Part shown: one piece after another, positions 1,656 to 55,110 of the stretch
Numbering within the stretch: the stretch's first letter is position 1
Layout of the letters: every line of letters begins with the position of its first letter
Origin: Fibrobacteria bacterium
GTDB lineage: Bacteria; Fibrobacterota; Chitinivibrionia; Chitinivibrionales; FEN-1185
Direction of reading: 5' to 3'
NCBI GenBank assembly: GCA_037447435.1
Contig: JBBIGR010000027.1
Coordinates: 1-64,000, forward strand
DNA: 64,000 bases
Position numbers and translations under genes: made by a program
Notes under the pieces: generated by a model
The model's database searches: none
What the model saw: the letters and a program-made list of their open reading frames with translations, nothing else
What the model was told of the DNA's origin: nothing

Positions 1656-1801
1656 ATTAGAAACGCTATAGAATCTAAAAATAATAAGTACCGGTAATAA
1701 TTGTCGCACGGAATACTCTAGAGCACGAGTATTTTCGGGATGAACAATTAAGCAATGGGATTGAATTTATTCGCATGAAAAGAAACGAATGATATGCAGT
1801 A

Positions 1802-2281: not shown

Positions 2282-2282
2282 T

Positions 2283-2780: not shown

Positions 2781-3006
2781 TTTGGCTCCTTGGATAACTA
2801 ACCCAATATACAATGCTCCCTATCATTTCTTCAAGGAGAAAAGCGCAAAGATCATACCGCCAGGAACGCGTAAAATCAGACAAAGCCCAGGTCTCATAAC
2901 CTGCATTTTTGCCGGTATATTAATCCCTCCTTTGAATTAATCCAAGATAATAAATGTCTTTTCGCAAAACACGAAATAATTTTTATATTTTTTAATGTCA
3001 ACACAC

Positions 3007-3044
3007 AAAAAAAGATGCCTCGCAGAAAAAGCTGCGAGGCATCT
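3007..3044 (-). terminator. Rho-independent terminator of the large lipoprotein gene
   Basis: 13-bp stem AGATGCCTCGCAG/CTGCGAGGCATCT followed by a U-tract on the minus strand. Confidence 0.85.
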
Positions 3045-3131
3045 ACTATTCCTATAAAAACCGATTACTCATTTATATCGGCAATCAACAAAAATTAATC
3101 AAATGATTTTCATTATCAGAATTCATCGTCT

Positions 3132-8907: not shown

Positions 8908-8963
8908 GGATCCCCTCTTGAAGAATGAGTTGTTTCACATAAATATAGTTTACGATTAAAAGC

Positions 8964-8995
8964 TAAAGAACCGTATCTCTTGATACGGTTCTTTA
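8964..8995. terminator. Intergenic hairpin / terminator between ThuA paralogues
   Basis: Perfect 14-bp stem TAAAGAACCGTATC/GATACGGTTCTTTA with a 4-nt loop. Confidence 0.65.
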
Positions 8996-9036
8996 ACATA
9001 TCGAAAAAACCAAGATCAACAAAGCAAAAGCGGTTT

Positions 9037-10152
9037 TTATTTCAAGCTTATTCTTCCGGTAATAACGCCGTTGGCCCCTTTTGCAGTAATGATATAAACA
9101 CCCGGCCCGATTTTACTTCTATCGATTTCGCATTGCCCGTTTATTCCGGTTTCTCTGCTCAAAACTCTACCATTCACATCCGACAATATCACGGATATTT
9201 TTCCTTCATTAGCAAGAGAAATTGAAATATTCTGAGCATCCGATTTTAGCGATAAGGTAGTTCCCGCTTTTTCTGAAACCTGTTTGATATTTTCACTTTC
9301 AGTTATTACGCCGGCAAAACTTTTAAGCGCATTAAGCAACAATTTGCAATACATGGTATCGCTAAACGTCTTTGAAATACCGACTCTGGTCGAATAATTA
9401 ACGCTATCATGTCCCATATTGCAATACATGGCGTTATAATTCTTATTTTTCCAAACCACGGGATAATACCCGCTTGTCCAAGACTGACTAGGATCTGTTC
9501 CTAAGGGAAAACTTTTCGGATTGATCGAGCAAAGAATTTTAATGTTGGGATTGTTTCTTAAATCATTTTTCCACGAGTACCATTCGTTGGTGCAACATTT
9601 AAAGGTCTTGGGAAATCCCTTGGTAATGACATTGGACGTATCTTCGACATCGAGTATTGCCGGGGTCGGGAACCAGGTATTATTATTGAAAAGGCCGCTC
9701 CCGAGCAACGTGTCATTATACCATGGCCAATGCGACAAGCAACAATTTGGATCACTTGTGACCATATTAAAAATTGCAACATGGAAACCGATCCACCCAC
9801 CCCCGTTTTTAATGTATGTCTCGAAAGCGTTTCTTTGGCCATTGTCACCAGGATAGTTGTCGAAAAACATGATTACTTTGTAATTTGCCAGTTTTGTCGC
9901 ATTCAAGTCAGAAAAGTTTTTCGTTGAATCATAAATAAAACCATTGGCAGTTGAAACTTTTCTAAACCAGTTATTCGCCTCCAAAGCAAATGCAGCGTGC
10001 GCGGCGTCTCCCATATCAGGATAATTGGTGTAAAACCCCAAGACCTTAAACGGAGACATTTGCGGTTTTGCCTGTACGGATGAATAGTGGCAAAGTAAGA
10101 CTAATACCCCCAAACAAAGCAGCTTCAAAGGTAACCCGATAGATTTACGCAT
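9037..10152 (-). CDS. Secreted ThuA-like domain protein with C-terminal sorting-like domain (paralogue 3)
   Basis: Start re-called at MRKSIG, which has a G-rich RBS. GGGWIGFHVA, NEWYSW, YPVVWKN and NMGH motifs; C-terminal DVNGRVL...PGVYII. Confidence 0.8.
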   Translation of the reverse strand: MRKSIGLPLKLLCLGVLVLLCHYSSVQAKPQMSPFKVLGFYTNYPDMGDAAHAAFALEANNWFRKVSTANGFIYDSTKNFSDLNATKLANYKVIMFFDNYPGDNGQRNAFETYIKNGGGWIGFHVAIFNMVTSDPNCCLSHWPWYNDTLLGSGLFNNNTWFPTPAILDVEDTSNVITKGFPKTFKCCTNEWYSWKNDLRNNPNIKILCSINPKSFPLGTDPSQSWTSGYYPVVWKNKNYNAMYCNMGHDSVNYSTRVGISKTFSDTMYCKLLLNALKSFAGVITESENIKQVSEKAGTTLSLKSDAQNISISLANEGKISVILSDVNGRVLSRETGINGQCEIDRSKIGPGVYIITAKGANGVITGRISLK

Positions 10153-10177
10153 GCGACCCCCCAAAAATGTGAAAAAA

Positions 10178-11299
10178 TTATTTAATCGTATTATTTTCCA
10201 AGCAAATTTTCTGCGAAATAACAGTTTTTGCATTTTTAACTCTTATAAAGTAAATACCTTGTTTCAGTTTATCGTACTCAATCCGGGCAATCCCGTTGAG
10301 TGAACGCGCTGAAGCAACCGTTATTCCAAGTGCATTGCACAATGTCGCGTTCATTTGCTCATGCGACGAAAGCGAAATTTCCAAATCATTGCCCACAGTT
10401 TTCACCAGCAATTCCTGCTTTGGAGATTCCGTAACGACGGAAATAGTTTTACCTTGCTCCACTTCGGTGGTTACACCGGCTTCCCACTTAATGGTGTTAA
10501 GAACAAATTTCGCAAAACTTGCATTAGTAAAAGACGTCGACACGCCGACATCGTCGGCGCGGTTATGGCCGATATTCGAGTACACCATTTTATATTTCGT
10601 ATTTGTCCAAATGACCGGTACATAACCCGTTCCGCTCCAGGTAAATACCCCCTGCGTACCGACAGGGTATGCGCTTTTATCTATGGAGGCGAGGACTTTC
10701 ATGTCCGGATTCTTCCGCAAATCGTTTTGCCAGCTGTAAAACTCGTTGTCAGGTGATTTGAATGACGCACCCAATCCTTTCATCGCGGGATGGGTCGTAT
10801 CTTCAACTAAAAGCAACGGTCCGGAGGGTGGCCAGGTGTTCGAAACAAATTGACCCATGGCCAAAAATGTTTTCGTATACCAGTCCCAGTTTGCCGGATC
10901 TATGGAATTATTGAATGCGCTGACATGATAACCTATGAATCCACCGCCGTTGGTCATATAATTTTGAAACGCCGTCCGTTGCCCGGCATCCCACGGAAAT
11001 GCATCCAAAAACATGATCACCTTGTAATTGGCCAGCTTGGTAGCATTGAGATCGCCCCAATTCGTCGTATTTTCATAAATAAACCCGTTGGCGGCGGCGA
11101 CAGTCGGAAACCAGGCGTTTGCCTCTTTGGCAAAGCTTCGATGGCCTCCGTCTGCCATGTTTGCAGGCGTTGTAGAAAAACCCAATACCTTAAAGGGAGA
11201 GGTCTGAGGTTTGGCGGAAGTTATAGATATAACCAGCAGCGATGTAAAAACACCGACGATTATCTTTATTGTCCATTTCCTAAAAGCCTTAACAACCAT
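10178..11299 (-). CDS. Secreted ThuA-like domain protein with C-terminal sorting-like domain (paralogue 2)
   Basis: Start re-called at MVVKAF. GGGFIGYHVSA, NEFYSW, PVIWTN and NIGH motifs; C-terminal QGIYFIRV. Confidence 0.8.
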   Translation of the reverse strand: MVVKAFRKWTIKIIVGVFTSLLVISITSAKPQTSPFKVLGFSTTPANMADGGHRSFAKEANAWFPTVAAANGFIYENTTNWGDLNATKLANYKVIMFLDAFPWDAGQRTAFQNYMTNGGGFIGYHVSAFNNSIDPANWDWYTKTFLAMGQFVSNTWPPSGPLLLVEDTTHPAMKGLGASFKSPDNEFYSWQNDLRKNPDMKVLASIDKSAYPVGTQGVFTWSGTGYVPVIWTNTKYKMVYSNIGHNRADDVGVSTSFTNASFAKFVLNTIKWEAGVTTEVEQGKTISVVTESPKQELLVKTVGNDLEISLSSHEQMNATLCNALGITVASARSLNGIARIEYDKLKQGIYFIRVKNAKTVISQKICLENNTIK

Positions 11300-11331
11300 A
11301 TTCCCCCCGGGAAATAAATACAGTCCGTTTC

Positions 11332-12417
11332 CTATTGCAAAAACATTTTCTGGGACACGGTCGCTCCCAGGTAGTTTGCAGAAAGAACATACATACCCGA
11401 CGGTATCGCATTTCTGTTTAATTTGCAAAAACCCATGCCTTGCGCCTTTTCAATCACCCTGCCGTTGACATCGGTAAGTGTTGCCGAAATGGACGTTGCC
11501 GCAGGAACGCTCAAGGTTATAAAATTCTTTCCGGTGTTCACGTCGAGCTTATATGCCATGTCCGAAAGGATTTTAAAAGGGTTTGCGGACTTGACTGAAG
11601 TGGGTTTTGTCCCCAACCACATGATCGCGTCGGTGAGGAAATTGGACATATTGGAATCGTTGCTGGTTACGGCAAGCGCTCCATGACCGATATTGCAGTA
11701 AATCATTCTTTTGAATGCGGTATTCGTCCAGATTACCGGTACATCGACACCCTTTGGAATAACATCGCTGGCATGTTGTCCGTCTCCATTGCCAAACGGT
11801 AAAGCGGTAGGATCGATGGATACCAGGACTTTTATTCCTGCCGTGAGTCGCGGGCTCGGGCACCACTGGTAATATTCGTTGACCGGACCGGTCCAATTTT
11901 TGGCAACATGTATTGTTGCCGGATGGGTCTGATCGTCGGTTATAAGCTTGACGCTTGCAGGGGGCCAATTGTTTTTACAGTAATTGCCTTGATGAATAAA
12001 GGTTTGTTCCCAGGGCCAATTTGTTGAAGCGTCGTAATAGCCGGATGCATGAAAGCCCATCCACGCGCCGCCATTTTCCATGTATTTCTGAAATTCCGTA
12101 TGTTGGGCATCGGTGTAGGTAAACAGATTAAGCCACAATACAGCGTCGTACTGGGACATAAACGCGTAGTTGCAATTGTTCTTCCAGTCTTTGGTGGAAT
12201 CGAATTGAAAATTGTTCTTTGCCGCTAGTTTTGTATAAAATTGAATCGCCGCATGCGCATAGTCTTTATGCGCCTGCTCCACCGTGTCGGAATAAAAACC
12301 GATAACCTTAAAAAGCGGTGTTGCGGCAAAGGATGTTTTTACAGAGGCGCCTAAAAAAACGAAGCATCCGGCGCAGATACAAATGAATGCAAACTTTCCC
12401 GCTGCAGTTTTTTTCAC
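11332..12417 (-). CDS. Secreted ThuA-like domain protein with C-terminal sorting-like domain (paralogue 1)
   Basis: GTG start and signal peptide. GGAWMGFHAS, NEYYQW, PVIWTN and NIGH motifs; C-terminal DVNGRVI...SGMYVL. Confidence 0.8.
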   Translation of the reverse strand: MKKTAAGKFAFICICAGCFVFLGASVKTSFAATPLFKVIGFYSDTVEQAHKDYAHAAIQFYTKLAAKNNFQFDSTKDWKNNCNYAFMSQYDAVLWLNLFTYTDAQHTEFQKYMENGGAWMGFHASGYYDASTNWPWEQTFIHQGNYCKNNWPPASVKLITDDQTHPATIHVAKNWTGPVNEYYQWCPSPRLTAGIKVLVSIDPTALPFGNGDGQHASDVIPKGVDVPVIWTNTAFKRMIYCNIGHGALAVTSNDSNMSNFLTDAIMWLGTKPTSVKSANPFKILSDMAYKLDVNTGKNFITLSVPAATSISATLTDVNGRVIEKAQGMGFCKLNRNAIPSGMYVLSANYLGATVSQKMFLQ

Positions 12418-14103: not shown

Positions 14104-15258
14104 CTATTCGGCAGCTGCGCCTTTAATGAGGGCCAAGGCTATTTCGTTTCGTTGAATTTGATTTGTTCCTTCGTAAATCTGGGTTATCTTGGCATCACGC
14201 ATACGTTTTTCCATAGGATATTCGCGCATGTAACCGTAACCGCCCATTACCTGTAACGCATCGACCGTAACTTTCATTGCAACATCGGAACAGAAAAGTT
14301 TCGTCATTGCCGATTCTTTGGCAAACTTCTTTTCTCCCGCATCAATAGTACGGGCTGTAGCATACATAAGTGCCCGTGCAGCTTCGATTTGCGTTGCCAT
14401 GTCGGCAAGCATATGCTGTACGGCCTGAAACCCGGAAATGGCCTGGCCGAATTGGACGCGTTCGCGTGAATACTTAATAGCGTCTTCAAGCGCGCCGGCT
14501 GCGATTCCGAGGGCTTGCGAGCCTACGCCGGGACGAGAATAATTGAGAGTATTGATTGCGACAATCGCGCCCATACCTTCACGGGCCAAAAGGTTTTCTT
14601 TCGGCACTTTGCAGTCCTGGAAAACAAGTTCGGTGGTACTCGACGCACGAATTCCCATTTTATCTTCGTGCTTTCCAAATGTAAATCCCGGAGTGCCCTT
14701 TTCGACGATAAAAGCGCTTATTCCGCGCGCACCTTTTGCCACATTGGTTTTGGCAAGCACGGTATAGATTTCCGCATTTTCACCGTTTGTAATCCACTGC
14801 TTGGTCCCGTTCAGAACATAATAATCGCCTTGCAACACGGCAGTCGTCTTCATTCCCAGCGCGTCGGAACCCGCATTTGCTTCCGTCAAACCGAAGGCTG
14901 CAAGTTTTTTGCCTGATGCGATATCGGGAAGGTATTTCTTTTTCTGGGCGTCGCTGGCGAAAAGCAGAATCGGAAATGTTCCGAGCGCCGTTGCCGCGAG
15001 GGCGAGGGAAATGCCGCCGTCGATTTTGGATAATTCTTCAACGCAAAGGCACAACTCCATAACGCCGCCGCCCATCCCGCCGTATTCTTCGGGAATATAG
15101 AGCCCGCACAAGTCGGCCTCGGCACATGCTTTGACGACGTCCCAGGGGAAAATGCCCTCGTGGTCATATTTTTCTCGAACGGGAAGTATCACTTTTTGTG
15201 CAATTTCCCGTGCAGTTTCGACTATCATTTGTTGTTCTTCAGTCAGGAACCAGTTCAT
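14104..15258 (-). CDS. Acyl-CoA dehydrogenase (short/branched-chain, butyryl-CoA dehydrogenase-like)
   Basis: AFGLTEANAGSDA, LNGTKQWITNG, EDKMGIRAS and RDAKITQIYEGTNQIQR motifs. Start MNWFLT overlaps the 3' end of rnc by 20 nt. Confidence 0.92.
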   Translation of the reverse strand: MNWFLTEEQQMIVETAREIAQKVILPVREKYDHEGIFPWDVVKACAEADLCGLYIPEEYGGMGGGVMELCLCVEELSKIDGGISLALAATALGTFPILLFASDAQKKKYLPDIASGKKLAAFGLTEANAGSDALGMKTTAVLQGDYYVLNGTKQWITNGENAEIYTVLAKTNVAKGARGISAFIVEKGTPGFTFGKHEDKMGIRASSTTELVFQDCKVPKENLLAREGMGAIVAINTLNYSRPGVGSQALGIAAGALEDAIKYSRERVQFGQAISGFQAVQHMLADMATQIEAARALMYATARTIDAGEKKFAKESAMTKLFCSDVAMKVTVDALQVMGGYGYMREYPMEKRMRDAKITQIYEGTNQIQRNEIALALIKGAAAE

Positions 15259-16051
15259 TATGGATGACTCCTTGTTTTTTGGTGAGTATATCTTCTTTGT
15301 TATATGTTTCCAAGGCGGATCGAGCCGCATTTTGCTCGGCTATTTTTTTGTTTGGGCCGCTGCCTTCCCCAAGCTTGACACCTGCAATTTCAATTTGCAT
15401 GGTGAACTCCTTGGCATGTTCCGGACCGCTTGAGGCGATCACCTGGTATCGCGGAATGCCGAAACCGTCGCGCTGGGATAATTCAAGTATCTTGCTTTTG
15501 TAGTTGATGTTCGACACATCCTTACAAAACGCGTCGATGGACCCGAACAAAAACCGCTGCAAAAACAGGCGCGACGAAACAAGCCCCCCGTCGAGGTATA
15601 TTGCGCCGATCACGGCCTCAAAAGCATTCGACATGATCGATGTCCGCTGCATGCCTCCGGATTTCTTCTCCGAATAGCCGAACAGCAGGAATTCACCCAT
15701 GTTAAAACCCTGCGCGATTTCGCCGAGTATTTTCCTGGATACGACAAGCGACTTGATTTTGGAAAGCTGACCTTCGGATTTTGTCGGGTACAAGGAATAC
15801 AGGTGCTCCGTTACCAAGCAATTGAGTACCGCATCGCCTAAAAACTCAAGCCGTTCGTTTGAATCGAGCCCTTTTTTGTCTTCCGGGCCAACGCTTGATT
15901 TATGCGTAAGCGCCTGCGTGAGCAATTGCGGATTGCGGAACTTGTATCCTATTGTATTTTGAAAAGTCCTGAGTGAAGAAGCGGTTTCCGGGGGCTTTGC
16001 AAATAATGAAAATATTTGCAAAAGCCCTCGTTTGCGCTTTGGACTATGCAT
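15239..16051 (-). CDS. rnc: Ribonuclease III
   Basis: NERLEFLGDAVL signature, FEAVIGAIYLDGG and a C-terminal dsRBD (GPEHAKEF, KKIAEQNAA). Confidence 0.96.
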   Translation of the reverse strand: MHSPKRKRGLLQIFSLFAKPPETASSLRTFQNTIGYKFRNPQLLTQALTHKSSVGPEDKKGLDSNERLEFLGDAVLNCLVTEHLYSLYPTKSEGQLSKIKSLVVSRKILGEIAQGFNMGEFLLFGYSEKKSGGMQRTSIMSNAFEAVIGAIYLDGGLVSSRLFLQRFLFGSIDAFCKDVSNINYKSKILELSQRDGFGIPRYQVIASSGPEHAKEFTMQIEIAGVKLGEGSGPNKKIAEQNAARSALETYNKEDILTKKQGVIHNELVPD

Positions 16052-17282
16052 ACTTCCCGACTATCAGCGACACATTATGACCGCCGAAACCGAATGAATT
16101 GCTCAACGCATACCGTACCTGGCGTTTGACGGCCGTGTTCGGCGTATAATTGAGATCGCAATCGGGATCCGGGTCTTCGTAATTGATTGTCGGATGCACA
16201 ATGTCGTTTTTAACGGACAAAACGCTCGCAACGAGTTCGATGCCGCCCGACGCACCCAAGAGATGGCCGGTAATGGACTTTGTCGAACTCACATTGATGT
16301 TTTTTGCATGCTCACCAAAAACTTTTTTGATGGCACAAGTCTCGTTTTTGTCGTTAAGGTCCGTCGAAGTGCCGTGAGCATTGATATAATCGATGTCCGA
16401 AGTCTTTAGGCCTGCCGTTGAAAGTGCCATGGCCATAGACCGGCATCCTCCTTCGGCTTCGGGAGCGGGAGCGGACAGATGATACGCATCACCGGTTGCA
16501 CCGTACCCCACCATTTCGGCATAGATTTTTGCTCCGCGGGCCAGGGCGTGGTCAAGCGTTTCGAGAACCAATATCCCGGCACCTTCACCCATGACAAATC
16601 CGTCTCGTTTTTTATCGAAGGGCGAACTTGCTTTTTGAGGATTATCGTTACGGGTCGACATTGCTTTCATTGAACAGAATCCGGCAAACGACAGCGGTGT
16701 AATAGCCGCCTCTGCGCCACCTGTGATCGCAACGTCCATCATGCCGCTTTTCAGCATCATGAAGGAATCTCCGATTGCATGACCACCAGACGCACATGCG
16801 CTCACCACGCTGTAGTTAGGTCCCTTTAGGCCGTAGCCGATGGAAACCCTGCCAGCCGCCATGTCCGGTATCATCATAGGAATAAGAAAAGGAGAAACAC
16901 GGCTCGGTCCTCGAGAGAGGAGTTTGCTATGTTCCGTTTCCAATGTCTTAAGCCCACCGATACCAGAGCCGATTATTGTTCCGATCCTGGTTAAATCTTC
17001 GGATGCAAGATTGAGTCCTGCGTCCTTGATTGCAGCATCCGCCGCAAACACCGCAAACAGGATAAAACGATCCGTCCTGTTTACTTCTTTTGTATCGACA
17101 ACACCCGAAAAATCGATATTTTGAACAATACCGGCGATTTTTGTCGGGTAATTTGTCGTATCAAAAGTTGTTATTTTATCAAGTCCGGATTTCCCGGTAA
17201 GAAGGGAATCCCAGAACGACTGCACTGTATTGCCAACAGGGCTGACAACACCTAAACCGGTTACAACGACTCTTTTGGACAT
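16044..17282 (-). CDS. fabF: 3-oxoacyl-ACP synthase II
   Basis: RVVVTGLG, SACASG (catalytic Cys), YINAHGTST, KSITGHLLGA and SNSFGFGGHN. Confidence 0.97.
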   Translation of the reverse strand: MSKRVVVTGLGVVSPVGNTVQSFWDSLLTGKSGLDKITTFDTTNYPTKIAGIVQNIDFSGVVDTKEVNRTDRFILFAVFAADAAIKDAGLNLASEDLTRIGTIIGSGIGGLKTLETEHSKLLSRGPSRVSPFLIPMMIPDMAAGRVSIGYGLKGPNYSVVSACASGGHAIGDSFMMLKSGMMDVAITGGAEAAITPLSFAGFCSMKAMSTRNDNPQKASSPFDKKRDGFVMGEGAGILVLETLDHALARGAKIYAEMVGYGATGDAYHLSAPAPEAEGGCRSMAMALSTAGLKTSDIDYINAHGTSTDLNDKNETCAIKKVFGEHAKNINVSSTKSITGHLLGASGGIELVASVLSVKNDIVHPTINYEDPDPDCDLNYTPNTAVKRQVRYALSNSFGFGGHNVSLIVGKYA

Positions 17283-17302
17283 GCTCTATCTTTCGTTATT
17301 GA

Positions 17303-17536
17303 TTAAAGCTTGCTAGAGAGATAATCAAATGCATCTTTGACGGTTTTGAGCTTTTCGGCATCTTCATCGGGAATTTCGATGTCGAATGCATCTTCGAATG
17401 CCATAATAAGTTCGACCTGGTCGAGTGAATCCGCGCCAAGATCGTCGACAAACGAAGCTGCCGGGGTTACTTTGTCTTCACTTACTCCAAGCTTCTCTGC
17501 AATAATCTGCTTAATCTTGGTATCTTTCTCGCTCAC
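17303..17536 (-). CDS. acpP: Acyl carrier protein
   Basis: 77 aa with DDLGADSLD phosphopantetheine site and [10 protein letters not shown]. Confidence 0.97.
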
Positions 17537-17652
17537 ACTGGACTCCTTTCGAGAGTGTTATTGATGCTTAAAACTAAAAGACCAATTTACTATGAAATAA
17601 CCTGTACATTACTTTAAAAATTTAAAGCCTACATAAAATGCTTGTTTGCAGC

Positions 17653-18396
17653 CTACATTACAAGTCCGCCGTCGACAGTAATGACCTGACCCGTGATATA
17701 CGACGCGAGCGGCGAAGCCAAAAACAATACGGCGTTTGCCACATCGGCGGGTAATCCCAGTTTTTGCATGGGTATATGGGCAGAAAGCTTTTCCTTATCG
17801 GCAGGTGATAATTTATCGGTCATTGCAGTTTGAATAAATCCCGGTGCAACCGCGTTAACGGTGATGTTGCGTGTTGCGAATTCCTTTGCCAAAGTTTTCG
17901 ACAAACCGATAAGGCCGGCTTTGGATGCAGAGTAATTTGCCTGTCCGGCATTCCCCATGAGCCCGACAACCGAAGCGATATTAATGATGGTTCCGGTACG
18001 CGCTTTCATCATAATACGGCTTACTTCTTTACAACATAAAAATGCACTTTTAAGATTGATATTCAGAACAAGATCCCAATCTTCTTCCTTCATTCGCATG
18101 ATGAGTCCGTCGCGGGTGATTCCGGCATTATTGACCAGAATATCCATCGTCGTAAAAGCAGCGCAAAAATCGGCTACCATTTGAGCAATATCGCCTGCTT
18201 TGGAAACATCGGCTTTTAAAGCGAGACTTTTAATTCCAAGGGAAGCAAGTTCAGCCGCAGTTGCCTGGGCCGTAGAAAGGTCTATATCGCATATTGCGAC
18301 GTTTGCTCCGGCTTTTGCAAGCGTTAAGGCAATTTCTTTTCCAATTCCTCTTCCACCACCGGTCACTAATGCGTTTTTTCCTGAAAGATTTATCAC
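17653..18396 (-). CDS. fabG: 3-oxoacyl-ACP reductase
   Basis: TGGGRGIG, NNAGITRD and GNAGQANYSASK motifs; position in the fab operon. Confidence 0.96.
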   Translation of the reverse strand: MINLSGKNALVTGGGRGIGKEIALTLAKAGANVAICDIDLSTAQATAAELASLGIKSLALKADVSKAGDIAQMVADFCAAFTTMDILVNNAGITRDGLIMRMKEEDWDLVLNINLKSAFLCCKEVSRIMMKARTGTIINIASVVGLMGNAGQANYSASKAGLIGLSKTLAKEFATRNITVNAVAPGFIQTAMTDKLSPADKEKLSAHIPMQKLGLPADVANAVLFLASPLASYITGQVITVDGGLVM

Positions 18397-18413
18397 GGCA
18401 CACTCCTCAAATT

Positions 18414-18498
18414 TCAGAGTTACTAGTCAGAAGTTAGAAGTAAGAAGTCTCACGAAACTATTCATCTTTTAACACCCAACTTCGAACTTCGAACCTGT
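18414..18498. repeat. Two arrays of degenerate 7-nt repeats in inverted orientation between fabD and fabG
   Basis: tcagagt-tactagt-cagaagt-tagaagt-aagaagt (18414-18448) and aacttcg-aacttcg-aacctgt (18478-18498). Confidence 0.6.
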
Positions 18499-18501
18499 TT
18501 T

Positions 18502-19431
18502 TCAGCTATTCGAAACCATAGAATATACGTTTTCTACAGTCCCACACGGTATAACATTTAATCGAGAATCGCACTTTCTGGCCAATCCGGAAACGACATT
18601 GCCCGGTCCTACTTCAATGCAGGAACCGTGATCGCTTGATGCAAGAAATGCCATTGAATCGATCCAGCGTACCGGAGAGGTCAATTGTTTGACAAGAAGC
18701 GCCTTAACAGTTTCGCCCGATGTTTCTGCCTGAGCGGTAACATTTGCTATGACCGGGCATTTGGGATCGTTAAAGCTATATGGCGCAATAAACGCGGCGA
18801 ATTCTTCGGCGCAAGGAGCCATAAGAGGCGAATGAAATGCACCGCTAACCGGCAACTGTATTGCGCGTTTAGCACCGACTTTTTTTAATACTTCACAAGC
18901 TTGAGAAACTGCAGGTATTTCACCGGAAATCACTATTTGGTCCGGACTATTTTCATTTGCACATACGACAATGCCGGCGACACCGCGAGTAAGGGCATCA
19001 ACGATTTGTTGTTTAGGCAGTCCGATAACTGCGGCCATTGTTCCGGGTGCTTTCTTTCCCGCATCGGCCATAAGTGAACCGCGTTTTGCGACAATGGTTA
19101 ACCCGTCTTTGAAAGAAAAAACGCCGGCGGCATATAAGGCACTGTATTCGCCAAGCGAATGCCCTGCACAAAAGCTTGGCATTACGCCTTTTTCCTTAAG
19201 ACTATCGGTAATAATGGACTCGACCACAAACAATGCCGGTTGAGTATTTTGCGTCTGAGTCAATTGGTCTTCGGGCCCGTTAAATATGAGCGATGCAAGG
19301 TCACGACCTAGTATGGAATTACATTCGTCGAACCGTTGTTTGGCAAGGTCTGAGGATTCGAAAAAATCCTTGGCCATACCAACCTTTTGTGACCCTTGAC
19401 CAGGAAACAGAAACGTGTACTTCATTATCAT
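18502..19431 (-). CDS. fabD: Malonyl-CoA:ACP transacylase
   Basis: FLFPGQGSQ, NTQPAL, AGHSLGEY and LPVSGAFHS motifs. Confidence 0.97.
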   Translation of the reverse strand: MIMKYTFLFPGQGSQKVGMAKDFFESSDLAKQRFDECNSILGRDLASLIFNGPEDQLTQTQNTQPALFVVESIITDSLKEKGVMPSFCAGHSLGEYSALYAAGVFSFKDGLTIVAKRGSLMADAGKKAPGTMAAVIGLPKQQIVDALTRGVAGIVVCANENSPDQIVISGEIPAVSQACEVLKKVGAKRAIQLPVSGAFHSPLMAPCAEEFAAFIAPYSFNDPKCPVIANVTAQAETSGETVKALLVKQLTSPVRWIDSMAFLASSDHGSCIEVGPGNVVSGLARKCDSRLNVIPCGTVENVYSMVSNS

Positions 19432-19512
19432 TCTCCGTTTGTTTATGAGAGCCTAAATTTATTCACTAAGGTCAATCGGACAATTCATATTTTTTACAAG
19501 AGAAACCCTCTA

Positions 19513-20505
19513 TTAAAATCGGACTAAAACACTTCCCCATACAAGCCCGCCGCCCAGTGCGGTGAAAGCCACCACTGTACCCGGTTTAATTTTTCCATCA
19601 CTCCAAGCATCATTCAAAGCCAGGGGTATCGATGCCGATGATGTGTTCCCGAAGCGATCTAAATTAACTATGACCTTTTCTTTTGGCAAATGCATATGCT
19701 TGGCCATGGCATCGATTATACGGATATTAGCCTGATGAGGAATGAGTAAATCAACTTCCGCAAATGTCAGACCGGCCATTTGCAGGCATTGTTCGGTTGC
19801 TTCCCCCATAAGTCGAACGGCATGTTTGAAAACATCATTGCCGTTCATCCGCATATAACGATCATCTCCCCAAGCGGGAAGATACAGAATATCGCCCAAA
19901 CTGCCGTTACTTTTTAGGAAGGTGGACAATATACCGCGATCGGTACCGTCGGTGTTTTCACAAGCCTCCAGAACGACCGCGCCTGCACCATCGCCGAATA
20001 ATATACATGTCGTACGGTCGGTCCAGTCCAAGGTGCGTGAATTCATTTCGGCCCCAATGACCAACATTTTTGTACATTGACCGGAAAGAATCATTGAATT
20101 CGCAACAGTCAGTGCGTATACGAAACCGGCGCATGCGGCAGACACGTCGAATGCCAATGCCTTTGTGTTTCCGATATAATTCTGGATTTTGCATGCGGTT
20201 GACGGAAAAAAGCAATCGGGCGAAAACGTCGCACAGATGATCCCGTCGATTTCGTCGGCGGCGTATCCTGCTTTTTCCAAAGCATTTTTTGCTGCTTTCC
20301 CGCCGAGTTCGGACGTTTGCATAGGGTTGTTTTTTTCGCAAATATGCCGTTGCTTTATACCCGTCCTTGCAGAAATCCATTCATCAGTCGTATCGAGAAA
20401 CGATTCAAAGTCCTTATTCGGCATAATATGGTCGGGAACGCTTGTTCCAACAGACACTATTCGTGTGCGACGTAGTGGTGTCAACGTGATAATAACCCTT
20501 CCCAT
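19513..20505 (-). CDS. fabH: 3-oxoacyl-ACP synthase III
   Basis: AACAGF, LFGDGAGA, IPHQANIRI and GNTSSASIP motifs. Confidence 0.96.
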   Translation of the reverse strand: MGRVIITLTPLRRTRIVSVGTSVPDHIMPNKDFESFLDTTDEWISARTGIKQRHICEKNNPMQTSELGGKAAKNALEKAGYAADEIDGIICATFSPDCFFPSTACKIQNYIGNTKALAFDVSAACAGFVYALTVANSMILSGQCTKMLVIGAEMNSRTLDWTDRTTCILFGDGAGAVVLEACENTDGTDRGILSTFLKSNGSLGDILYLPAWGDDRYMRMNGNDVFKHAVRLMGEATEQCLQMAGLTFAEVDLLIPHQANIRIIDAMAKHMHLPKEKVIVNLDRFGNTSSASIPLALNDAWSDGKIKPGTVVAFTALGGGLVWGSVLVRF

Positions 20506-21488
20506 CCCTGCGCCACGGCGAATCCGAGCGCTTTTTTCTTTACAGATGATATTGCCGCCACAATTGCATTTGCAATGGCGCGTGATGACGAACTGCCGTG
20601 CGCTTTAAGCACGATTCCCCGAATTCCGAGAAACGGAACAGCTCCATAATTTTCCGGATTCAGCACAGACATATTGTCTTTTATTGCGGCTGCAAGTTCG
20701 GGATTGTTACCCAAATAGGACTTGGCCAGCAAATGAAAGCTTTCACATGTTTTCAAAAGAACATTTCCGGCAAAGCCGTCGCAAACCACAACATTTGCCT
20801 CACCAAGAAGTACGCCGGAACCTTCAATGAACCCTGCATACCCTTTACACCGTTTTGCCAAGAATTGCGCAGCTTCCGATAATGTCTTAGTACCCTTTGT
20901 GGATTCGGTCCCCACATTGAGAAGCGCGACTTTTGGCTGTGGAATCTCGAGGTATTTATTGACATATGAATACCCCATGAGACCAAAATCAACGAGATGC
21001 TCGACACGGCAATTAAGGTTCGCGCCGACATCGAGCAAAAGAGTCGGGTGCTTTCCCGTTGTCGGCAAAAACGCGGCCAAGGCCGGCCGTTTTATGCCTT
21101 TGTGCCTGCCAAGAATGAAAATCGATGCCCCGAGCAAAATACCGGTGTCGCCGGCACTGATCGTCGCATCAACGGTACCTTGCTTTTGAAGAATTACCGA
21201 GCGGATGATCGAAGAATTCGCCCGCAAGCGCCATACTCTGGAACGAAGCTCGCCCGGTGAAACTTTATCGATGCACGGTTCTATGACCATGCAGCTTTTT
21301 CTTTCCTGCTCCGAAACCCCTAGTTCATCGAGCAAATCGCTTATACGAGAAGCGTCGCCGCATAGATACGCAACAAACGGATCCGTACAAAGACGTTTGG
21401 CTTCAAGAATTCCTGTAAGAATTACTTTCGAGCCATTGTCACCACTGGTGACATCAATGGCAAGACGGATGGGAAGCATGGTCGGCAA
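20481..21488 (-). CDS. plsX: Phosphate acyltransferase PlsX
   Basis: RLAIDVTSGD, SAGDTG, LLDVGAN, VVVCDGFAGNVLLK and KAHGSS; lies between rpmF and fabH. Confidence 0.93.
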   Translation of the reverse strand: MPTMLPIRLAIDVTSGDNGSKVILTGILEAKRLCTDPFVAYLCGDASRISDLLDELGVSEQERKSCMVIEPCIDKVSPGELRSRVWRLRANSSIIRSVILQKQGTVDATISAGDTGILLGASIFILGRHKGIKRPALAAFLPTTGKHPTLLLDVGANLNCRVEHLVDFGLMGYSYVNKYLEIPQPKVALLNVGTESTKGTKTLSEAAQFLAKRCKGYAGFIEGSGVLLGEANVVVCDGFAGNVLLKTCESFHLLAKSYLGNNPELAAAIKDNMSVLNPENYGAVPFLGIRGIVLKAHGSSSSRAIANAIVAAISSVKKKALGFAVAQGWEGLLSR

Positions 21489-49248: not shown

Positions 49249-49278
49249 AAAAAAAGCGTTTGTAAAAACGCTTTTTTA
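49247..49278. terminator. Bidirectional terminator between HDOD and the carboxylase cluster
   Basis: AAAAAAGCGTTT-gtaa-AAACGCTTTTTT stem with A/T tracts on both sides. Confidence 0.75.
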
Positions 49279-49332: not shown

Positions 49333-51330
49333 TTATTTAATTTCCTCGATCGAAAGAAGCGGCTGGCCTTTTTCCACAAGCTTGCCGTCTTCCGCCAGTA
49401 TGGCTAAGATTTTGCATTTTACCGGAGTAACGATTTCATTGAATAGTTTCATAGCTTCCACAATGCAGACCTTTCCACCGGCTTCGACGATATCTCCTAC
49501 ATTGACAAATTTGGGTTTGCCCGGACCGCTTGTCGAATAAAAGGTCCCAACCAGCGGCGCTTTAATGGACATACCGGCGCTGGCAGGCGGCGTCACAGGT
49601 TTTTCAACCTTCGGCGCAACAGGTGCACTTGCGGGTTCGGATTTTTTTACTTCTGCCGGTTTGGGGGTTGCCTGGGTAATTGCAGGCGCAAAGGATTCGC
49701 CCGCCTTTGAAGAATCCGACCTCACCGACAACGAAAAATCGCCTTTCTTAAACGTCAACTCTTCCAATCGCATGGCGCCCGCCTGGGCCAACAAATCGCT
49801 GATGCCCTTATAATCTTCGGGATGCAAAATTTGGTCAAGCGTTTCCTCGGGAGTTTTTTCCGCGTTTTTTTGCGGAGCAGGCTCTGTTTTTTCCGATTGC
49901 GCCTTCAGTTTCTTGAACGCCGCATCAGCCGGGATTTCCGGTTTCTGATCCGCGGGAAATTCACGCCACTTGAAATATTCAAGCGCAGGTTCCGGAAGCA
50001 GACAATAGGATATTATATCTTCCTCGGTCTTGATATATTTCGGATCGATATTTTCGGTTGCCTTGGGCAACATCGGCGGGATCGTGTCCCCGGGGCGCGT
50101 CGTAATCGGCTTTTCGTCACCGAGGATTTTTTTCGCGAGCTCTTGATTGACGGGAACCGGAGTCCGACCATACAAACCGCGAAAATAATCTTTCACCTCG
50201 TTACTGACGACTTTGTAGCGCTCGCCGGTAATGACATTGATCGCTGCCTGAGCGCCAACGATCTGGCTGGTCGGCGTGACAAGCGGACACCAACCGAGCT
50301 CCTCGCGCACCTTCGATACTTCGTCGAGCACCTCGGGTAACTTTTCGAGCATATTCTGCTGCGTCAACTGCGAACGGAAATTCGATATCATTCCGCCCGG
50401 TATCTGATAAATCAAAATCTGCGGATCGATGCAGAATTGCTGCATAGTTTCGGTATTGCGATGAGGATACAAATCCGCAAAAAACTTGTGCACCTGCAAC
50501 ATCGCGTCTTTGTCAAGGTCCGCGTGATAGGCGGTTTCAGAGAAAATGGCGACCATAGTCTCTACCGGCGGCTGACTGCTCGTGCCTGCCATTGCCGCAA
50601 TCGCACAGTCGATGGCACCTGCGCCTGCACGCACGCCCTCAACATAAGTCGGCGCGGCCATACCGCTTGATGCATGGCAATGCAGTTGTATGGGCACCTC
50701 GACTTCGCGTATGAGCGCCGAAACGAGCCGTTCCGCGGAAATCGGCGACAAAATGCCGGCCATGTCTTTGATACACAGGGAATCGATGCCGATGGCGACC
50801 TGTTCTTTGGCATATTTAATATAGGTATCGATAGTATGAACGGGGCTAATGGTATAACATAACGTACCCTGCGCGTGCCCGCCGTGTTTTTTGACTGCCC
50901 GTACCGCGGCCTCGATGTTGCGGGTATCGTTGAGTGCATCGAAAACGCGGAAAATATCCATTCCGTTTTCGCAAGCAAGCGACACGAATCGATCGACCAC
51001 ATCGTCGGAATAATTACGGTACCCGACGAGGTTCTGGCCGCGCAAAAGCATTTGCAGCGGTGTTTTTTTAGCTTTGGACTTGATCAAACGAAGACGTTCC
51101 CAGGGATTTTCGCGTAAAAACCTAAGGCACACGTCGAACGTCGCGCCGCCCCAGCATTCCAGCGAATAGTATCCCACATTGTCAATCACGTCGATGATCT
51201 TCATGATGTCTTCGGTACGCATCCGCGTTGCCCACAACGATTGATGTCCGTCGCGAAGCGTGGTATCGGTTATACGTAACGGAATCTTATGCAATTGATT
51301 TTCCAAATCTTCTTTTTTTAATTTAGCCAT
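49333..51330 (-). CDS. Pyruvate/oxaloacetate carboxyltransferase (PycB/OadA/transcarboxylase 5S-like) fused to an AccB-type biotin carboxyl carrier
   Basis: N-terminal TDTTLRDGHQSL, WGGATFD, LLRGQNLVGY, IKDMAG, HCH and VTPTSQIVG motifs. C-terminal APLVGTFY...IVEAMKLFNEI. Confidence 0.9.
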   Translation of the reverse strand: MAKLKKEDLENQLHKIPLRITDTTLRDGHQSLWATRMRTEDIMKIIDVIDNVGYYSLECWGGATFDVCLRFLRENPWERLRLIKSKAKKTPLQMLLRGQNLVGYRNYSDDVVDRFVSLACENGMDIFRVFDALNDTRNIEAAVRAVKKHGGHAQGTLCYTISPVHTIDTYIKYAKEQVAIGIDSLCIKDMAGILSPISAERLVSALIREVEVPIQLHCHASSGMAAPTYVEGVRAGAGAIDCAIAAMAGTSSQPPVETMVAIFSETAYHADLDKDAMLQVHKFFADLYPHRNTETMQQFCIDPQILIYQIPGGMISNFRSQLTQQNMLEKLPEVLDEVSKVREELGWCPLVTPTSQIVGAQAAINVITGERYKVVSNEVKDYFRGLYGRTPVPVNQELAKKILGDEKPITTRPGDTIPPMLPKATENIDPKYIKTEEDIISYCLLPEPALEYFKWREFPADQKPEIPADAAFKKLKAQSEKTEPAPQKNAEKTPEETLDQILHPEDYKGISDLLAQAGAMRLEELTFKKGDFSLSVRSDSSKAGESFAPAITQATPKPAEVKKSEPASAPVAPKVEKPVTPPASAGMSIKAPLVGTFYSTSGPGKPKFVNVGDIVEAGGKVCIVEAMKLFNEIVTPVKCKILAILAEDGKLVEKGQPLLSIEEIK

Positions 51331-51345
51331 TGGTATTTCCTTTTT

Positions 51346-52296
51346 TTACTTTGCAAACTTTCCCATTGCCGAATACTTCTCGAACCTGTTTTTGATAAGA
51401 CGGGAACTCGAAGTCGATGTCAATTTCGCAAGGTGCGCTAGCACGACTCGCTTGATTTCCTGAGCGGTTTGCTCATGATTCCGGTGTGCGCCGCCAAGCG
51501 GCTCCGGCACGATTTCATCCGCAACGCCCAGTTCAATTAGCGACGGGGCCGTTATTTTCAACGCTTCCGCCGCTTTATTCGAAAACGATGCATCGCGGTA
51601 TAATATCGAAGCGCAACCTTCGGGTGAAATCACGGAATAAATTGCATGCTCAAGCATGAGTATCACATCTCCTACGCCGATTCCAAGCGCGCCGCCGCTG
51701 CCGCCTTCTCCGGTAACAATGGTCACGATCGGCACGGTAAGGCTTGCCATTTCCGTAAGGTTCCTGGCAATGGCCTCGGCATTGCCGCGCTCTTCGGCGT
51801 CGATGCCCGGATACGCTCCTTGCGTGTCGATAAAGCAAACAACCGGCAAATTATACTTCTCGGCCAAATGCATGAGTCTCATTGCTTTTCTGTAGCCTTC
51901 GGGTTTCGACTGGCCGAAATTCCGAATTATATTTTCGTCAATGTTCTTGCCCTTATTATGACCGATGAGCATGACTTTTTGTTTGCCCAATGTGGCAAAC
52001 CCGCCAATGAGCCCCTGATCGTCCCCGAAGCATCGGTCGCCGTGCAATTCGATGAAATTCGTGAAGATCAAATTGATATAATCGCGCAATACCGGACGTT
52101 TGGGATGGCGTGCGAACTGCACCTTTTGCCAGGGCGTCAAGTTCGAATAAATTTCCTTTTTCTGCGCAATGCATTTCTTTTCCAAATCGGCAATCTCGTC
52201 GCCGAAATGATTCTTTTCAGGAGCGATCGATTTCAGCTTCTCGATCATTTTCTCCATTTCGGCAATCGGCTTTTCAAAATCAAAATAGTCGCTCAT
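51346..52296 (-). CDS. accA: Acetyl-CoA carboxylase carboxyltransferase alpha
   Basis: FDFEKPI, ARHPKRP, ELHGDR, PEGYRKA, GEGGSGGALG and YSVISPEGCASIL motifs. Confidence 0.96.
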   Translation of the reverse strand: MSDYFDFEKPIAEMEKMIEKLKSIAPEKNHFGDEIADLEKKCIAQKKEIYSNLTPWQKVQFARHPKRPVLRDYINLIFTNFIELHGDRCFGDDQGLIGGFATLGKQKVMLIGHNKGKNIDENIIRNFGQSKPEGYRKAMRLMHLAEKYNLPVVCFIDTQGAYPGIDAEERGNAEAIARNLTEMASLTVPIVTIVTGEGGSGGALGIGVGDVILMLEHAIYSVISPEGCASILYRDASFSNKAAEALKITAPSLIELGVADEIVPEPLGGAHRNHEQTAQEIKRVVLAHLAKLTSTSSSRLIKNRFEKYSAMGKFAK

Positions 52297-52363
52297 AGTT
52301 TCAACCTTATATGTTATTATGAATTATCAAGCTTCCCCGCAGAACACCGCAGGGTTATAACCA

Positions 52364-53203
52364 TTACTGGTTATTGTACGACAGGACGTTTTTAAGCGCC
52401 TCTTTAAGGAGCTTGCGTTCAACAATCATATCGATAAAACCATGTTCCTGGTAATATTCCGATGTCTGGAAATTTTCCGGAAGTTTCTGCTTAATGGTCT
52501 GTTCGATAACGCGTCGGCCGGCAAACCCGATGAGTGCGCCCGGTTCGGCGATATTGACATCGCCTACCATTGCATAGCTCGCGCTCACGCCGCCTGTCGT
52601 CGGATCGGTTAGTACCGAAATATACGGGATTTTCTTCTCACGCAAACGCGCAATCCCGGCGCAGGTTTTTGCCATTTGCATAAGCGATAAAATTCCCTCA
52701 TGCATTCGCGCACCGCCCGATGACGAAAAAATGATATACGGTATTTTATGATCATAGGCATAATTTGCAGCGAGCAAAATTTTTTCTCCGGTAGCGCTAC
52801 CCAAACTGCCGCCGAAAAATCGGAAATCCATAACTGCTATGGAAACCGGAATTGTAAAAATTTCACCCGTACCGCACACCACGGATTCATTGAGCCCGGT
52901 CTTTTGCCGCGCTTCGACGATTTTGTCTTTGTAGGTGCCTTTAGAATATGAAAAAGCCAGCGGATCATTCGGGGTTATTGTTTCGAACATTTCCTTGAAT
53001 GTGTCGACATCAAGAATTTGCCCGATCCGTTCATATGCGGTTAGTTTTCCATGATATCCGCATTTTGGACAAACGCTCATGGAATTATACCAGTCTTCCT
53101 TAAAAACATGGGCTTTACATGACTCACATTTTACCCAGATATCTTCCTTAGCAGGTTTTTTCTTCTGGGCTTCAGCAGATTTAGATTTTGAAAACCAAGG
53201 CAC
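52364..53203 (-). CDS. accD: Acetyl-CoA carboxylase carboxyltransferase beta
   Basis: WVKCESC..CPKC zinc finger, SGGARMHEG, DPTTGGVSAS and AEPGALIGFAGRRVIEQT motifs. Confidence 0.96.
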   Translation of the reverse strand: MPWFSKSKSAEAQKKKPAKEDIWVKCESCKAHVFKEDWYNSMSVCPKCGYHGKLTAYERIGQILDVDTFKEMFETITPNDPLAFSYSKGTYKDKIVEARQKTGLNESVVCGTGEIFTIPVSIAVMDFRFFGGSLGSATGEKILLAANYAYDHKIPYIIFSSSGGARMHEGILSLMQMAKTCAGIARLREKKIPYISVLTDPTTGGVSASYAMVGDVNIAEPGALIGFAGRRVIEQTIKQKLPENFQTSEYYQEHGFIDMIVERKLLKEALKNVLSYNNQ

Positions 53204-53313
53204 GGTTACATCCTTTGTTTGCGGGACTTAATGATTGGTTCAGCCGATTCAATTTGATGAAGCATGGCCTGGACAGCAATAAAATATAACAAATCCAGGC
53301 CATTGCAACAAAA

Positions 53314-55110
53314 TTAGCCGAGCCGTTTTTCAAGTGCAGCGAGTTCGTCGGCAAGTGCTTGGGGCAATTTGGACCCGAATTTTTTATAATGGTCCTTAAT
53401 GCTTTCGACTTCTTTTTTCCAATCGGAAGCATTTACCTTAAGCAGTTCTTCCATGTCCGATTTCGAAACCGACAAACCGGAAAGGTCGATTGCATCGGGT
53501 GTCGGCATATAACCGATAGGAGTTTCAACCGCTTTGGCATTCCCATCGGTACGATCGAAAATCCATTTCAAAACGCGGCTGTTGTCGCCGTATCCGGGCC
53601 ATAACCATTTTCCATCATCGTTCTTGCGGAACCAGTTGACATAAAACACCTTGGGAAGTTTGTCGGCAGCTGTTTTCTTGCCGATGTTTACCCAATGAGC
53701 AAGGTAATCGCCCATATTATATCCGCAGAAAGGAAGCATTGCAAACGGATCGCGGCGAACAACGCCGACCGCGCCGATGTTTGCGCTTGTTGTTTCGGAG
53801 CCGACCATCGAACCCATGAACACGCCATGGTTCCAATTAAATGCTTCATGAACAAGAGGTATTGTCGTCGGACGACGACCGCCAACCAAAAACGCGCTGA
53901 TTGGCACGCCTTTGGGATCTTCCCATGCCGGATCGATGACGGGACATTGTTGTGCCGGCGCTGTAAAACGGGCATTGGGATGCGCACCGTTTTTGCCGCT
54001 TTCAACAGTCCATTCATTTCCCTGCCAATCGATTTTCTTGCCTTCCGGAGCATCGTAGCCGATTCCTTCCCACCAAACATCTTTATCTTCGGTCATCACG
54101 ACATTGGTGAAAATGGAATTTTTCTTAATGGTTAACATTGCATTGGGATTCGATTGCATCGATGTTCCCGGCGCAACGCCGAAAAAGCCCGATTCGGGAT
54201 TGATCGCATATAGTCTGCCGTCGGGGCCGAATTTCATCCAGGCGATATCGTCGCCAACCGTTTCGACTTTCCATCCGGGAAGGCTTGGTATCATCATTGC
54301 CAAATTCGTTTTTCCGCACGCGGAGGGAAAAGCAGCGGCGACATATTTTTTCTTGCCTTGAGGATTTGTGATTCCAAGAATAAGCATATGTTCGGCAAGC
54401 CAACCTTCATCACGCGCCTGTACCGAGGCAATGCGAAGGGCAAAACATTTTTTCCCTAAAAGCGCATTCCCGCCATAACCGGAGCCATACGACATAATCG
54501 TGCGGTCTTCAGGAAAATGGCATATGTATTTATTTGCAATATCCGGCGTGCATGGCCACGACGAATCTTTTTGACCGGGAGTAAGCGGTGCGCCAACCGA
54601 ATGTAAACAAGGAACGAATTCGCCATCTCCAAGGGTATCGAGAACCTTTTTACCCATGCGGGTCATGAGGCGCATATTGATCACGACATACGGCGAATCG
54701 GAAATTTCAATGCCGATTTTAGAAATAGGCGAACCGATCGGTCCCATTGAAAAGGGGATTACATACATTGTCCGCCCCTTCATACAACCGGTATACAGGC
54801 TTTTCATCTTCGCCTTCAGTTCAACGGGATCCATCCAATTATTTGTAGGGCCCGCATCTTCTTTGGATTTTGAAGAAATGTAGGTTCTATCTTCAACGCG
54901 TGCAACGTCCGACGGATGCGAACGGAACAAAAAGCTTCCGGGCCGTTTTTCAGGATTAAGAGGCGTCGCCATTCCGGCATCCACCATTTGCCTGCAAAGC
55001 TTGTCGTATTCTTCCTGTGAACCATCGCACCAGTAAATGCTGTCCGGCTGGCACATGGCGGCAACTTCTTTGACCCACAGGTCCAATTTCTTATTAGTCG
55101 TCATTGTCAT
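53314..55110 (-). CDS. pckG: Phosphoenolpyruvate carboxykinase (GTP)
   Basis: [44 protein letters not shown] and [13 protein letters not shown] motifs. Confidence 0.97.

Follow-up and report, generated by a model that had tools for sequence, protein, structure and literature searches.

A putative AccC-free oxaloacetate:acetyl-CoA transcarboxylase encoded from acetyl-CoA carboxylase parts in Chitinivibrionales

Bacterial fatty-acid synthesis is taught to begin, as its committed step, with the ATP-consuming acetyl-CoA carboxylase (ACC), whose AccC subunit is a drug target. The subject of this work is a gene cluster that may supply malonyl-CoA without AccC, found in a stretch of DNA from a Fibrobacteria bacterium of the order Chitinivibrionales (the window: the whole 64,000 nucleotides analysed, positions 1 to 64,000 of contig JBBIGR010000027.1, assembly GCA_037447435.1), and encoding a GTP-dependent phosphoenolpyruvate (PEP) carboxykinase (PEPCK), the ACC carboxyltransferase (CT) subunits AccD and AccA, and a fusion of a pyruvate/oxaloacetate CT with a whole AccB carrier. 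The type of reaction proposed for it is already known, from a side activity in Propionibacterium, an Entamoeba enzyme and a metabolic model of Clostridium thermocellum. According to the sources cited in this work, transcarboxylation lies near equilibrium, with the Propionibacterium enzyme forming malonyl-CoA as a side activity (PMC8085960); an Entamoeba histolytica transcarboxylase uses acetyl-CoA plus oxaloacetate to make malonyl-CoA where the conventional enzymes are missing (PMC8136499), with a fusion transcarboxylase of the same reaction type in Giardia (PMC7985675); and a metabolic model of C. thermocellum, which is without a standard ACC, has malonyl-CoA formed by the putative transcarboxylase Clo1313_1523-1526 (PMC5414155). 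In C. thermocellum and capnophiles, PEPCK is described as using CO2 and working in the direction of oxaloacetate (PMC8100219), and a phylogeny of biotin carboxylases (BCs) sets transcarboxylases aside (PMC3199775). No description of a bacterial enzyme pairing AccA/AccD with a CT-AccB fusion was found in the literature searched, which left most subscription journals outside it.

On the basis of gene content we consider it likely that AccD, AccA and the fusion would act together as an AccC-free oxaloacetate:acetyl-CoA transcarboxylase (oxaloacetate + acetyl-CoA -> pyruvate + malonyl-CoA), with the reaction and its direction being what we infer from sequence. A hybrid transcarboxylase built from ACC parts and yielding malonyl-CoA free of ATP was the proposal of a first-pass annotation of this DNA, which thereby gains support. 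The features concerned are as follows.

53314..55110, minus strand: pckG, GTP-dependent PEP carboxykinase, 598 aa (NF003253, 993 bits; PF17297 and PF00821; sole copy in the genome)
52364..53203, minus strand: accD, ACC carboxyltransferase beta, 279 aa (TIGR00515 above cut-off)
51346..52296, minus strand: accA, ACC carboxyltransferase alpha, 316 aa (NF004344/TIGR00513 above cut-off)
49333..51330, minus strand: fusion of pyruvate/oxaloacetate carboxyltransferase and whole AccB, 665 aa (Pfam, NCBIfam and PDB alignments)
49891..51279, minus strand: keto-acid carboxyltransferase part of the fusion (HMGL-like and PYC_OADA), aa ~18-480 (Pfam, structure-sequence alignment)
49345..49818, minus strand: AccB-type carrier part of the fusion, aa ~505-662, comprising the AccB N-terminal segment, a Pro/Ala linker and the biotinyl domain (TIGR00531 positions 4-155)
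49447..49449, minus strand: Lys628, biotin attachment site (motif position)

The quartet of minus-strand open reading frames, pckG-accD-accA-fusion, spans 49333..55110 with intergenic gaps of 110, 67 and 15 nt, exactly as first read, and the earlier naming of its products as GTP-PEPCK, AccD, AccA and a 665-aa carboxyltransferase with a biotinyl domain is borne out by NCBIfam models above their cut-offs. PckG, AccD and AccA all exceed equivalog cut-offs (score/cut-off in bits of 993/504, 375/317 and 471/357 respectively), with AccA and AccD scoring far under the methylmalonyl-CoA type models. Both are intact, with 66–68% of positions conserved by column; AccD retains the zinc-finger residues Cys26/29/45/48, Gly204-Gly205 of AccD and Gly201-Gly202 of AccA are invariant in alignments of relatives, and AccA shares 50% identity with that of E. 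coli. The cluster genes are probably co-transcribed, and AccA/AccD are predicted to bind the fusion. A promoter and terminator scan gave chance-level results (11 vs 9.2 ± 2.7 and 15 vs 10.9 ± 3.0).

The fusion passes the PycB-type model NF006761 (750/402, domain-level) and the AccB model TIGR00531 (116.5/115.2), and falls under the cut-offs for oadA (TIGR01108, 682/756.5) and 5S (489/827). Its tail matches free AccB proteins along its entire length, being 42% identical to one from Saprospirales across 169 aa and 35% identical to that of E. coli across 162 aa, whereas matches to carriers of the OadA and 12S systems span only ~47–76 aa; the protein can thus be described as a keto-acid CT joined to a complete AccB. 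The best PDB matches are 2NX9 and 5KS8, with 1RQB (5S) matched at E 4e-120, and alignment to these three structures shows the CT part to retain Arg26, Asp27, Gln30, Lys188, His217, His219 and Thr352, whose catalytic roles we take to be those assigned in work on pyruvate carboxylase and 5S. In databases, homologues of the fusion go by the names ‘pyruvate carboxylase subunit B’ or ‘oxaloacetate decarboxylase alpha’, with close ones assigned to Chitinivibrionales/Chitinispirillaceae and a full-length homologue (P0229, 63% identical) in the cultured Chitinispirillum alkaliphilum.

The first-pass annotation noted no accC/pycA and no oadB in the window, and this absence extends to the whole assembly (5.05 Mb, 96 contigs, 99.57% complete), where the search that it advised for BC, stand-alone accB and oadB found none of them. 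Profiles PF02785 and PF00289 detected no BC at E ≤ 1, with 13 of 14 control genomes positive, the matches to PF02786 being not BC but a 1096-aa CarB-type frame and PurD (named from size and sequence). With E. coli AccC and the orphan AccCs of three relatives as tblastn queries, three of the four gave only CarB-level matches and one gave nothing, and a six-frame search with a profile from 40 BC sequences returned only the CarB and PurD frames at E < 0.1. Thermotoga maritima was the only one of the 14 controls without BC domains, and has PYC_OADA and Carboxyl_trans matches. A profile search likewise found no OadB. The fusion carries the one biotinyl domain detected with PF00364, the other two matches being a SucB-like E2 and a lipoyl-FabH protein; this FabH-like fusion lies behind a gene resembling, by eye, a fused 2-oxoacid dehydrogenase E1 alpha/beta (L006:421-1743 and 1740-3209, on G000:C2). 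AccA and AccD are the sole PF01039 proteins, and so the only CoA-carboxyltransferases, with no 12S-type ~520-aa CT (PF01039) and no free biotin carrier (PF00364) in the genome; its biotin ligase exceeds the TIGR00121 cut-off. With no BC, no OadB and a single carrier, the two CTs are, among known families, each other's only possible partner.

In the proposed mechanism, the keto-acid CT of the fusion would move the carboxyl of oxaloacetate onto biotin at Lys628 with release of pyruvate, and the tethered AccB domain would swing to AccA/AccD, where acetyl-CoA would be carboxylated to malonyl-CoA for type II fatty-acid synthesis (FAS II). Oxaloacetate would come from PckG (PEP + CO2 + GDP -> oxaloacetate + GTP), a role that we regard as probable, giving the predicted net reaction PEP + CO2 + GDP + acetyl-CoA -> pyruvate + GTP + malonyl-CoA, which by arithmetic would save one nucleoside triphosphate (NTP) relative to pyruvate kinase followed by ACC. 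The condensation step of FAS II is decarboxylative and would pull the route forward; the route should depend on the CO2 level.

The conservation of the cluster was followed in 81 genomes of the order (Chitinivibrionales-type, including the present one), of which 79 encode the fusion, the two without it (86% and 88% complete) also being without AccA. In 70 of the 78 genomes with loci examined accD, accA and the fusion lie together, a grouping too frequent to be chance; of the remaining loci, three (genus g5) have the fusion apart and five are interrupted by contig ends, with the locus of G157 outside the set, and accD/accA and the fusion are unlinked in G009. A ParB-N gene lies between accD and accA in one locus (L088:4285-4734, G003), and in another a DNA methylase gene separates accA from the fusion (L210:6126-8369, G069). 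BC was detected in 20 of the 81 genomes, with none in the seven other members of the same family (five of them 94–98% complete), 0/8 in family f2, 7/46 in f3, 3/4 in f4, 6/7 in f5, 4/4 in f6 and 0/4 in f7-f9. A genome-encoded AccC or PycA, which the first-pass annotation named as evidence that would refute its proposal, was thus detected neither here, nor in the rest of the family, nor in 59 of the 79 fusion genomes of the order (44/61 of those ≥90% complete, contamination not being filtered for), and both BC and OadB went undetected in 35 of the 79. No genome of the order has an AccB-type carrier besides the fused one except G115, whose free AccB, behind fabG-fabF on a 3.5-kb contig, is probably foreign. 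OadB exceeds its cut-off in 27 genomes, in the listed places beside a second, ~600-aa OadA (one context read) or on other contigs, and not in this operon. Phylum-wide tallies include one unpublished genome (G194), unlike the order-level counts, and two named loci are protein-identical to order genomes already counted and so not independent.

An alignment of 84 fusions was used to compare the residues of the CT domain; AccC-bearing genomes contributed 19 of them, and the 65 others include two second copies as well as five loci from phylum-wide or genome-wide searches. Lys188 and Thr352 are both retained in 64 of the 65 AccC-less rows and 18 of the 19 AccC-bearing rows, and the biotin lysine is present in all 81 rows that cover the position. 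No clean sequence signature distinguishes fusions with AccC from those without, the best column difference being 0.63. Among AccC-bearing genomes, the fusion gene of G027 contains a stop codon, which may be an assembly error.

Where relatives encode a BC, it is ~450 aa long and unlinked, with no accB adjoining in 19 mapped loci, and all four orphan BCs tested pass the accC equivalog TIGR00514. Elsewhere in the phylum the five BC contexts read are canonical, with a free accB near accC. The 19 BCs form one group along family lines in a quick IQ-TREE phylogeny, with weak support (SH-aLRT 84), whilst that of G127 (1.6-kb contig) falls outside the group and fails TIGR00514. On a FastTree phylogeny of AccD, AccA and the fusion (71 rows, shorter and split rows excluded), AccC status switches seven times. 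The simplest reading of these unrooted trees is that AccC was inherited vertically and lost repeatedly, from an order ancestor in which AccAD, the fusion and AccC would all have worked with a single carrier. In the AccC-bearing relatives, a single biotin arm would be able to work with AccC, with AccA/AccD and with the keto-acid CT. In the FastTree phylogeny, the operons of two genomes from different families cluster together (L082 of G031 and L224 of G123, SH-like 99), a hint that the four-gene unit may have been transferred.

GTP-PEPCK is encoded in 46 of the 81 order genomes, with pckG directly upstream of accD in 37 of the 79 fusion genomes (compiled by hand from coordinates). Conservation of synteny, a check proposed in the first-pass annotation, thus holds for the accD-accA-fusion core but for pckG in fewer than half of the genomes, and since 15 of the 79 also encode neither BC nor any oxaloacetate-forming enzyme searched, pckG is best regarded as an accessory. 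The linkage occurs in 36/60 AccC-less compared with 1/19 AccC-bearing genomes (35/59 and 2/20 if G127 is taken as BC-bearing), or 12/20 and 1/13 counted by genus. ATP-PEPCK (above cut-off in none of the 81 genomes) and PEP carboxylase (in 8/81) were considered as substitutes for a missing PEPCK, and are too rare. Where relatives without pckG have large genes (535–1183 aa) upstream of accD, these were considered as oxaloacetate-forming enzymes, wrongly, as they comprise three hybrid histidine kinases, two tetratricopeptide repeat proteins and one protein with no Pfam match. In L235 and L237 (G067, G073) a divergent ~700-aa GTP-PEPCK, 30% identical to that of the window, takes the same place upstream of accD, a second and independent gain of PEPCK by the operon. 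The C. alkaliphilum paper likewise reports no pyruvate carboxylase or PEPCK (PMC4814513).

A second lineage with this arrangement is a Bacteroidales family, where accD, accA and the fusion were identified in the metagenome-assembled genome L122. Among 41 genomes of the family, 15 have the whole accD-accA-fusion set with motifs intact (14 verified plus L122), 14 encode a free AccB next to an AccC-type BC (13 whole, one cut; four contexts read), two are interrupted by contig ends and ten have neither arrangement. The ~450-aa AccC occurs in none of the 15 fusion genomes, and four of them, of unknown completeness, have no BC of any kind. In six Bacteroidales genomes (L122, L307-L311) a gene for pyruvate, phosphate dikinase (PPDK) is convergent on the fusion gene.

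Among other groups, no BC was found in four further genomes reached through their loci (completeness unknown), whereas Kiritimatiellae/Lentisphaerae proteins of 563–568 aa (L109-L116) were rejected as the same operon, not lying beside accDA in the loci fetched. Deltaproteobacterial CT-biotinyl fusions of ~675 aa (L118-L120) stand beside methylmalonyl-CoA mutase, MeaB, a 12S-type CT and succinyl-CoA ligase, a classical methylmalonyl-CoA transcarboxylase context. In the phylum family f10 (L195, L207; 78 genomes, probably Fibrobacteraceae-like), most members are without an AccA-type gene and 51 are without BC, most of the 27 BC matches being ~1205-aa frames of urea-carboxylase size; an operon of 12S/MmdA-type CT, free carrier and OadB, with a separate ~520-aa keto-acid CT, may provide malonyl-CoA by a second transcarboxylase route, of 12S type. 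Two f20 genomes in which BC was not found (G172 and G166) encode AccA-containing proteins of ~610 aa (L196, L198), probably AccD-AccA fusions.

The genes that would use malonyl-CoA are encoded in the window itself, listed here with an element beside the cluster.

16044..21488, minus strand: FAS II operon plsX-fabH-fabD-fabG-acpP-fabF (Pfam; 28 kb from the cluster and outside it)
17303-17536, within the FAS II operon: acpP (named by eye from sequence)
49249..49277, no strand assigned: A/T-flanked inverted repeat, terminator-like by eye, with approximate bounds, between the fusion gene and a convergent HDOD gene; not among the terminator-scan predictions

FabZ is encoded elsewhere in the genome, and the models for MatB and MdcA stay below cut-off, leaving no other malonyl-CoA source above cut-off. 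The genome also encodes pyruvate kinase, PPDK, malic enzyme, an LDH/MDH-family protein and pyruvate:ferredoxin oxidoreductase, with ATP-PEPCK and PEP carboxylase not found in it. At the end of the fab operon an acyl-CoA dehydrogenase gene follows rnc, which it overlaps by the reading-frame call (14104-16051), and four tandem ThuA-like genes lie at 7804-12417, three of them bearing a weak C-terminal tail of the type IX secretion system kind. The earlier rationale that the route would suit an energy-limited anaerobe is not supported, since a heme-copper oxidase operon is present in the genome and subunit I also in all seven other family members, and the host is, judging by these genes, not an obvious strict anaerobe. 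Across the order COX1 is found in 16/60 AccC-less and 1/19 AccC-bearing genomes, the reverse of what would be expected of anaerobes.

Several observations weigh against an AccC-free transcarboxylase. The assembly is in draft form, with 96 contigs, the fusion of genus g5 does not adjoin accDA, and in the AccC-less G155 (86% complete) the accA-linked fusion copy is without Lys188 and Thr352, with a second, intact copy also encoded. BC is present in 20 of the 81 order genomes (19 in one weakly supported group), so that the architecture by itself does not imply independence from ATP. The exclusion between pckG linkage and AccC is not significant in phylogenetically independent pairs (six pairs, on average 3.2 in the same direction and none opposite, median p 0.25), and as kin are not independent it is suggestive only. 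The main gap is the source of oxaloacetate in the 15 of 79 genomes (9/61 at ≥90% completeness) that are without BC, GTP-PEPCK, ATP-PEPCK and PEP carboxylase, with pyrophosphate (PPi)-dependent PEPCK outside the search. In the Bacteroidales family, 11 of the 15 fusion genomes have a BC of ~500–547 aa, in pccB-BC-carrier operons in all six contexts read, and this BC may cross-load the fusion.

Of the other explanations for these genes, the same parts could run in reverse or on another acyl-CoA, forming oxaloacetate from malonyl- or methylmalonyl-CoA and pyruvate, with PckG gluconeogenic and malonyl-CoA or fatty acids obtained from elsewhere. The near-equilibrium reaction (PMC8085960), the reversibility of PEPCK (PMC8100219), the 15 genomes without an oxaloacetate source among the enzymes searched, and the few anaplerotic routes here, with neither pyruvate carboxylase nor PEP carboxylase, are all compatible with this; however, the CT subunits pass the AccA/AccD equivalog cut-offs and fall far below the methylmalonyl-CoA type, and a complete FAS II is encoded, with neither MatB nor MdcA above cut-off as an alternative source of malonyl-CoA, making such a role unlikely. 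Quite unlikely, too, is that an unrecognised, non-homologous enzyme carboxylates biotin, or that the fusion acts chiefly as a soluble oxaloacetate decarboxylase, with accDA surviving as relics. Whilst the former would be invisible to homology searches and the latter agrees with the database names, AccA and AccD are intact and conserved, the tail of the fusion is of AccB and not OadA type, and OadB is missing here, those of the order lying outside the operon in the listed places. It is very unlikely that the assembly missed an ordinary AccC loading one biotin for both ACC and a two-subunit pyruvate carboxylase, each ATP-dependent: this state, which the first-pass annotation had offered as its alternative, does exist in 19 order genomes with an orphan ~450-aa BC and the fusion as only AccB, and AccC can evidently load the fused AccB given that G029 pairs it with the most decayed CT domain (Lys188, Thr352, His29, Ser355 and Gln356 lost), but BC is found neither here nor in any other member of the family.

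An AccC-free transcarboxylase therefore remains the reading that we favour, and on balance it would represent a widespread natural bacterial route to malonyl-CoA, with CO2 fixed and GTP gained where GTP-PEPCK takes part. In this broader picture, towards which we lean, AccC has been replaced repeatedly in Chitinivibrionales and a Bacteroidales family, including lineages with respiratory oxidases, and the relatives with AccC preserve an intermediate stage, a single biotin arm being shared by ACC, pyruvate carboxylase and transcarboxylase. If true, this would explain FAS II in dozens of genomes without a biotin carboxylase, correct the two database labels carried by the fusion family, and offer a compact, three-protein, ATP-sparing malonyl-CoA module for engineering.

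Compared with known systems, the cluster resembles heteromeric ACC (E. coli AccABCD) in encoding canonical AccA and AccD and a whole AccB, but AccC was not found here and AccB is fused to a keto-acid CT. With the Propionibacterium 12S/5S/1.3S enzyme (EC 2.1.3.1) it shares a keto-acid CT, homologous to 5S, an acyl-CoA CT and a carrier without BC, differing in having AccA and AccD in place of 12S, a fused AccB in place of free 1.3S, and a 5S score below cut-off. The CT-biotinyl domain order is that of PycB in two-subunit pyruvate carboxylase (PycAB) and of OadA in the Na+-pumping oxaloacetate decarboxylase, to which the best PDB matches also point; however, PycA and OadB were not found here, and the fusion has an AccB-type tail, is encoded with accDA and lies below the OadA cut-off. 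The single-chain (methyl)malonyl-CoA:pyruvate transcarboxylases of protists (Entamoeba histolytica, Giardia, Mastigamoeba, retortamonads) share the proposed reaction and purpose, but are one eukaryotic chain serving fatty-acid elongation, in contrast to three bacterial reading frames with canonical AccA/AccD/AccB for de novo FAS II; a single-chain AccDA-CT-carrier fusion was not seen among the best 120 of 3008 matches, which are crowded by pyruvate carboxylases and so are weak evidence. C. thermocellum is likewise a bacterium without a standard ACC in which a transcarboxylase is assumed, in the model, to provide malonyl-CoA, presumably with Clo1313_1523-1526 built from 12S-type parts. The engineered E. 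coli bypass of Shin and Lee (2017; cited in PMC12710033), a synthetic system, reportedly joins PEP carboxylation to transcarboxylation to malonyl-CoA, and is said to use PEP carboxylase and to recover no NTP. What the window contributes beyond these is the linkage of PEPCK, its near-exclusion with AccC, the intermediate state with AccC and a host not obviously a strict anaerobe. The cluster would work like EC 2.1.3.1, yet it is missing a defining part of each of EC 2.1.3.1, ACC, PycAB and the Na+ pump.

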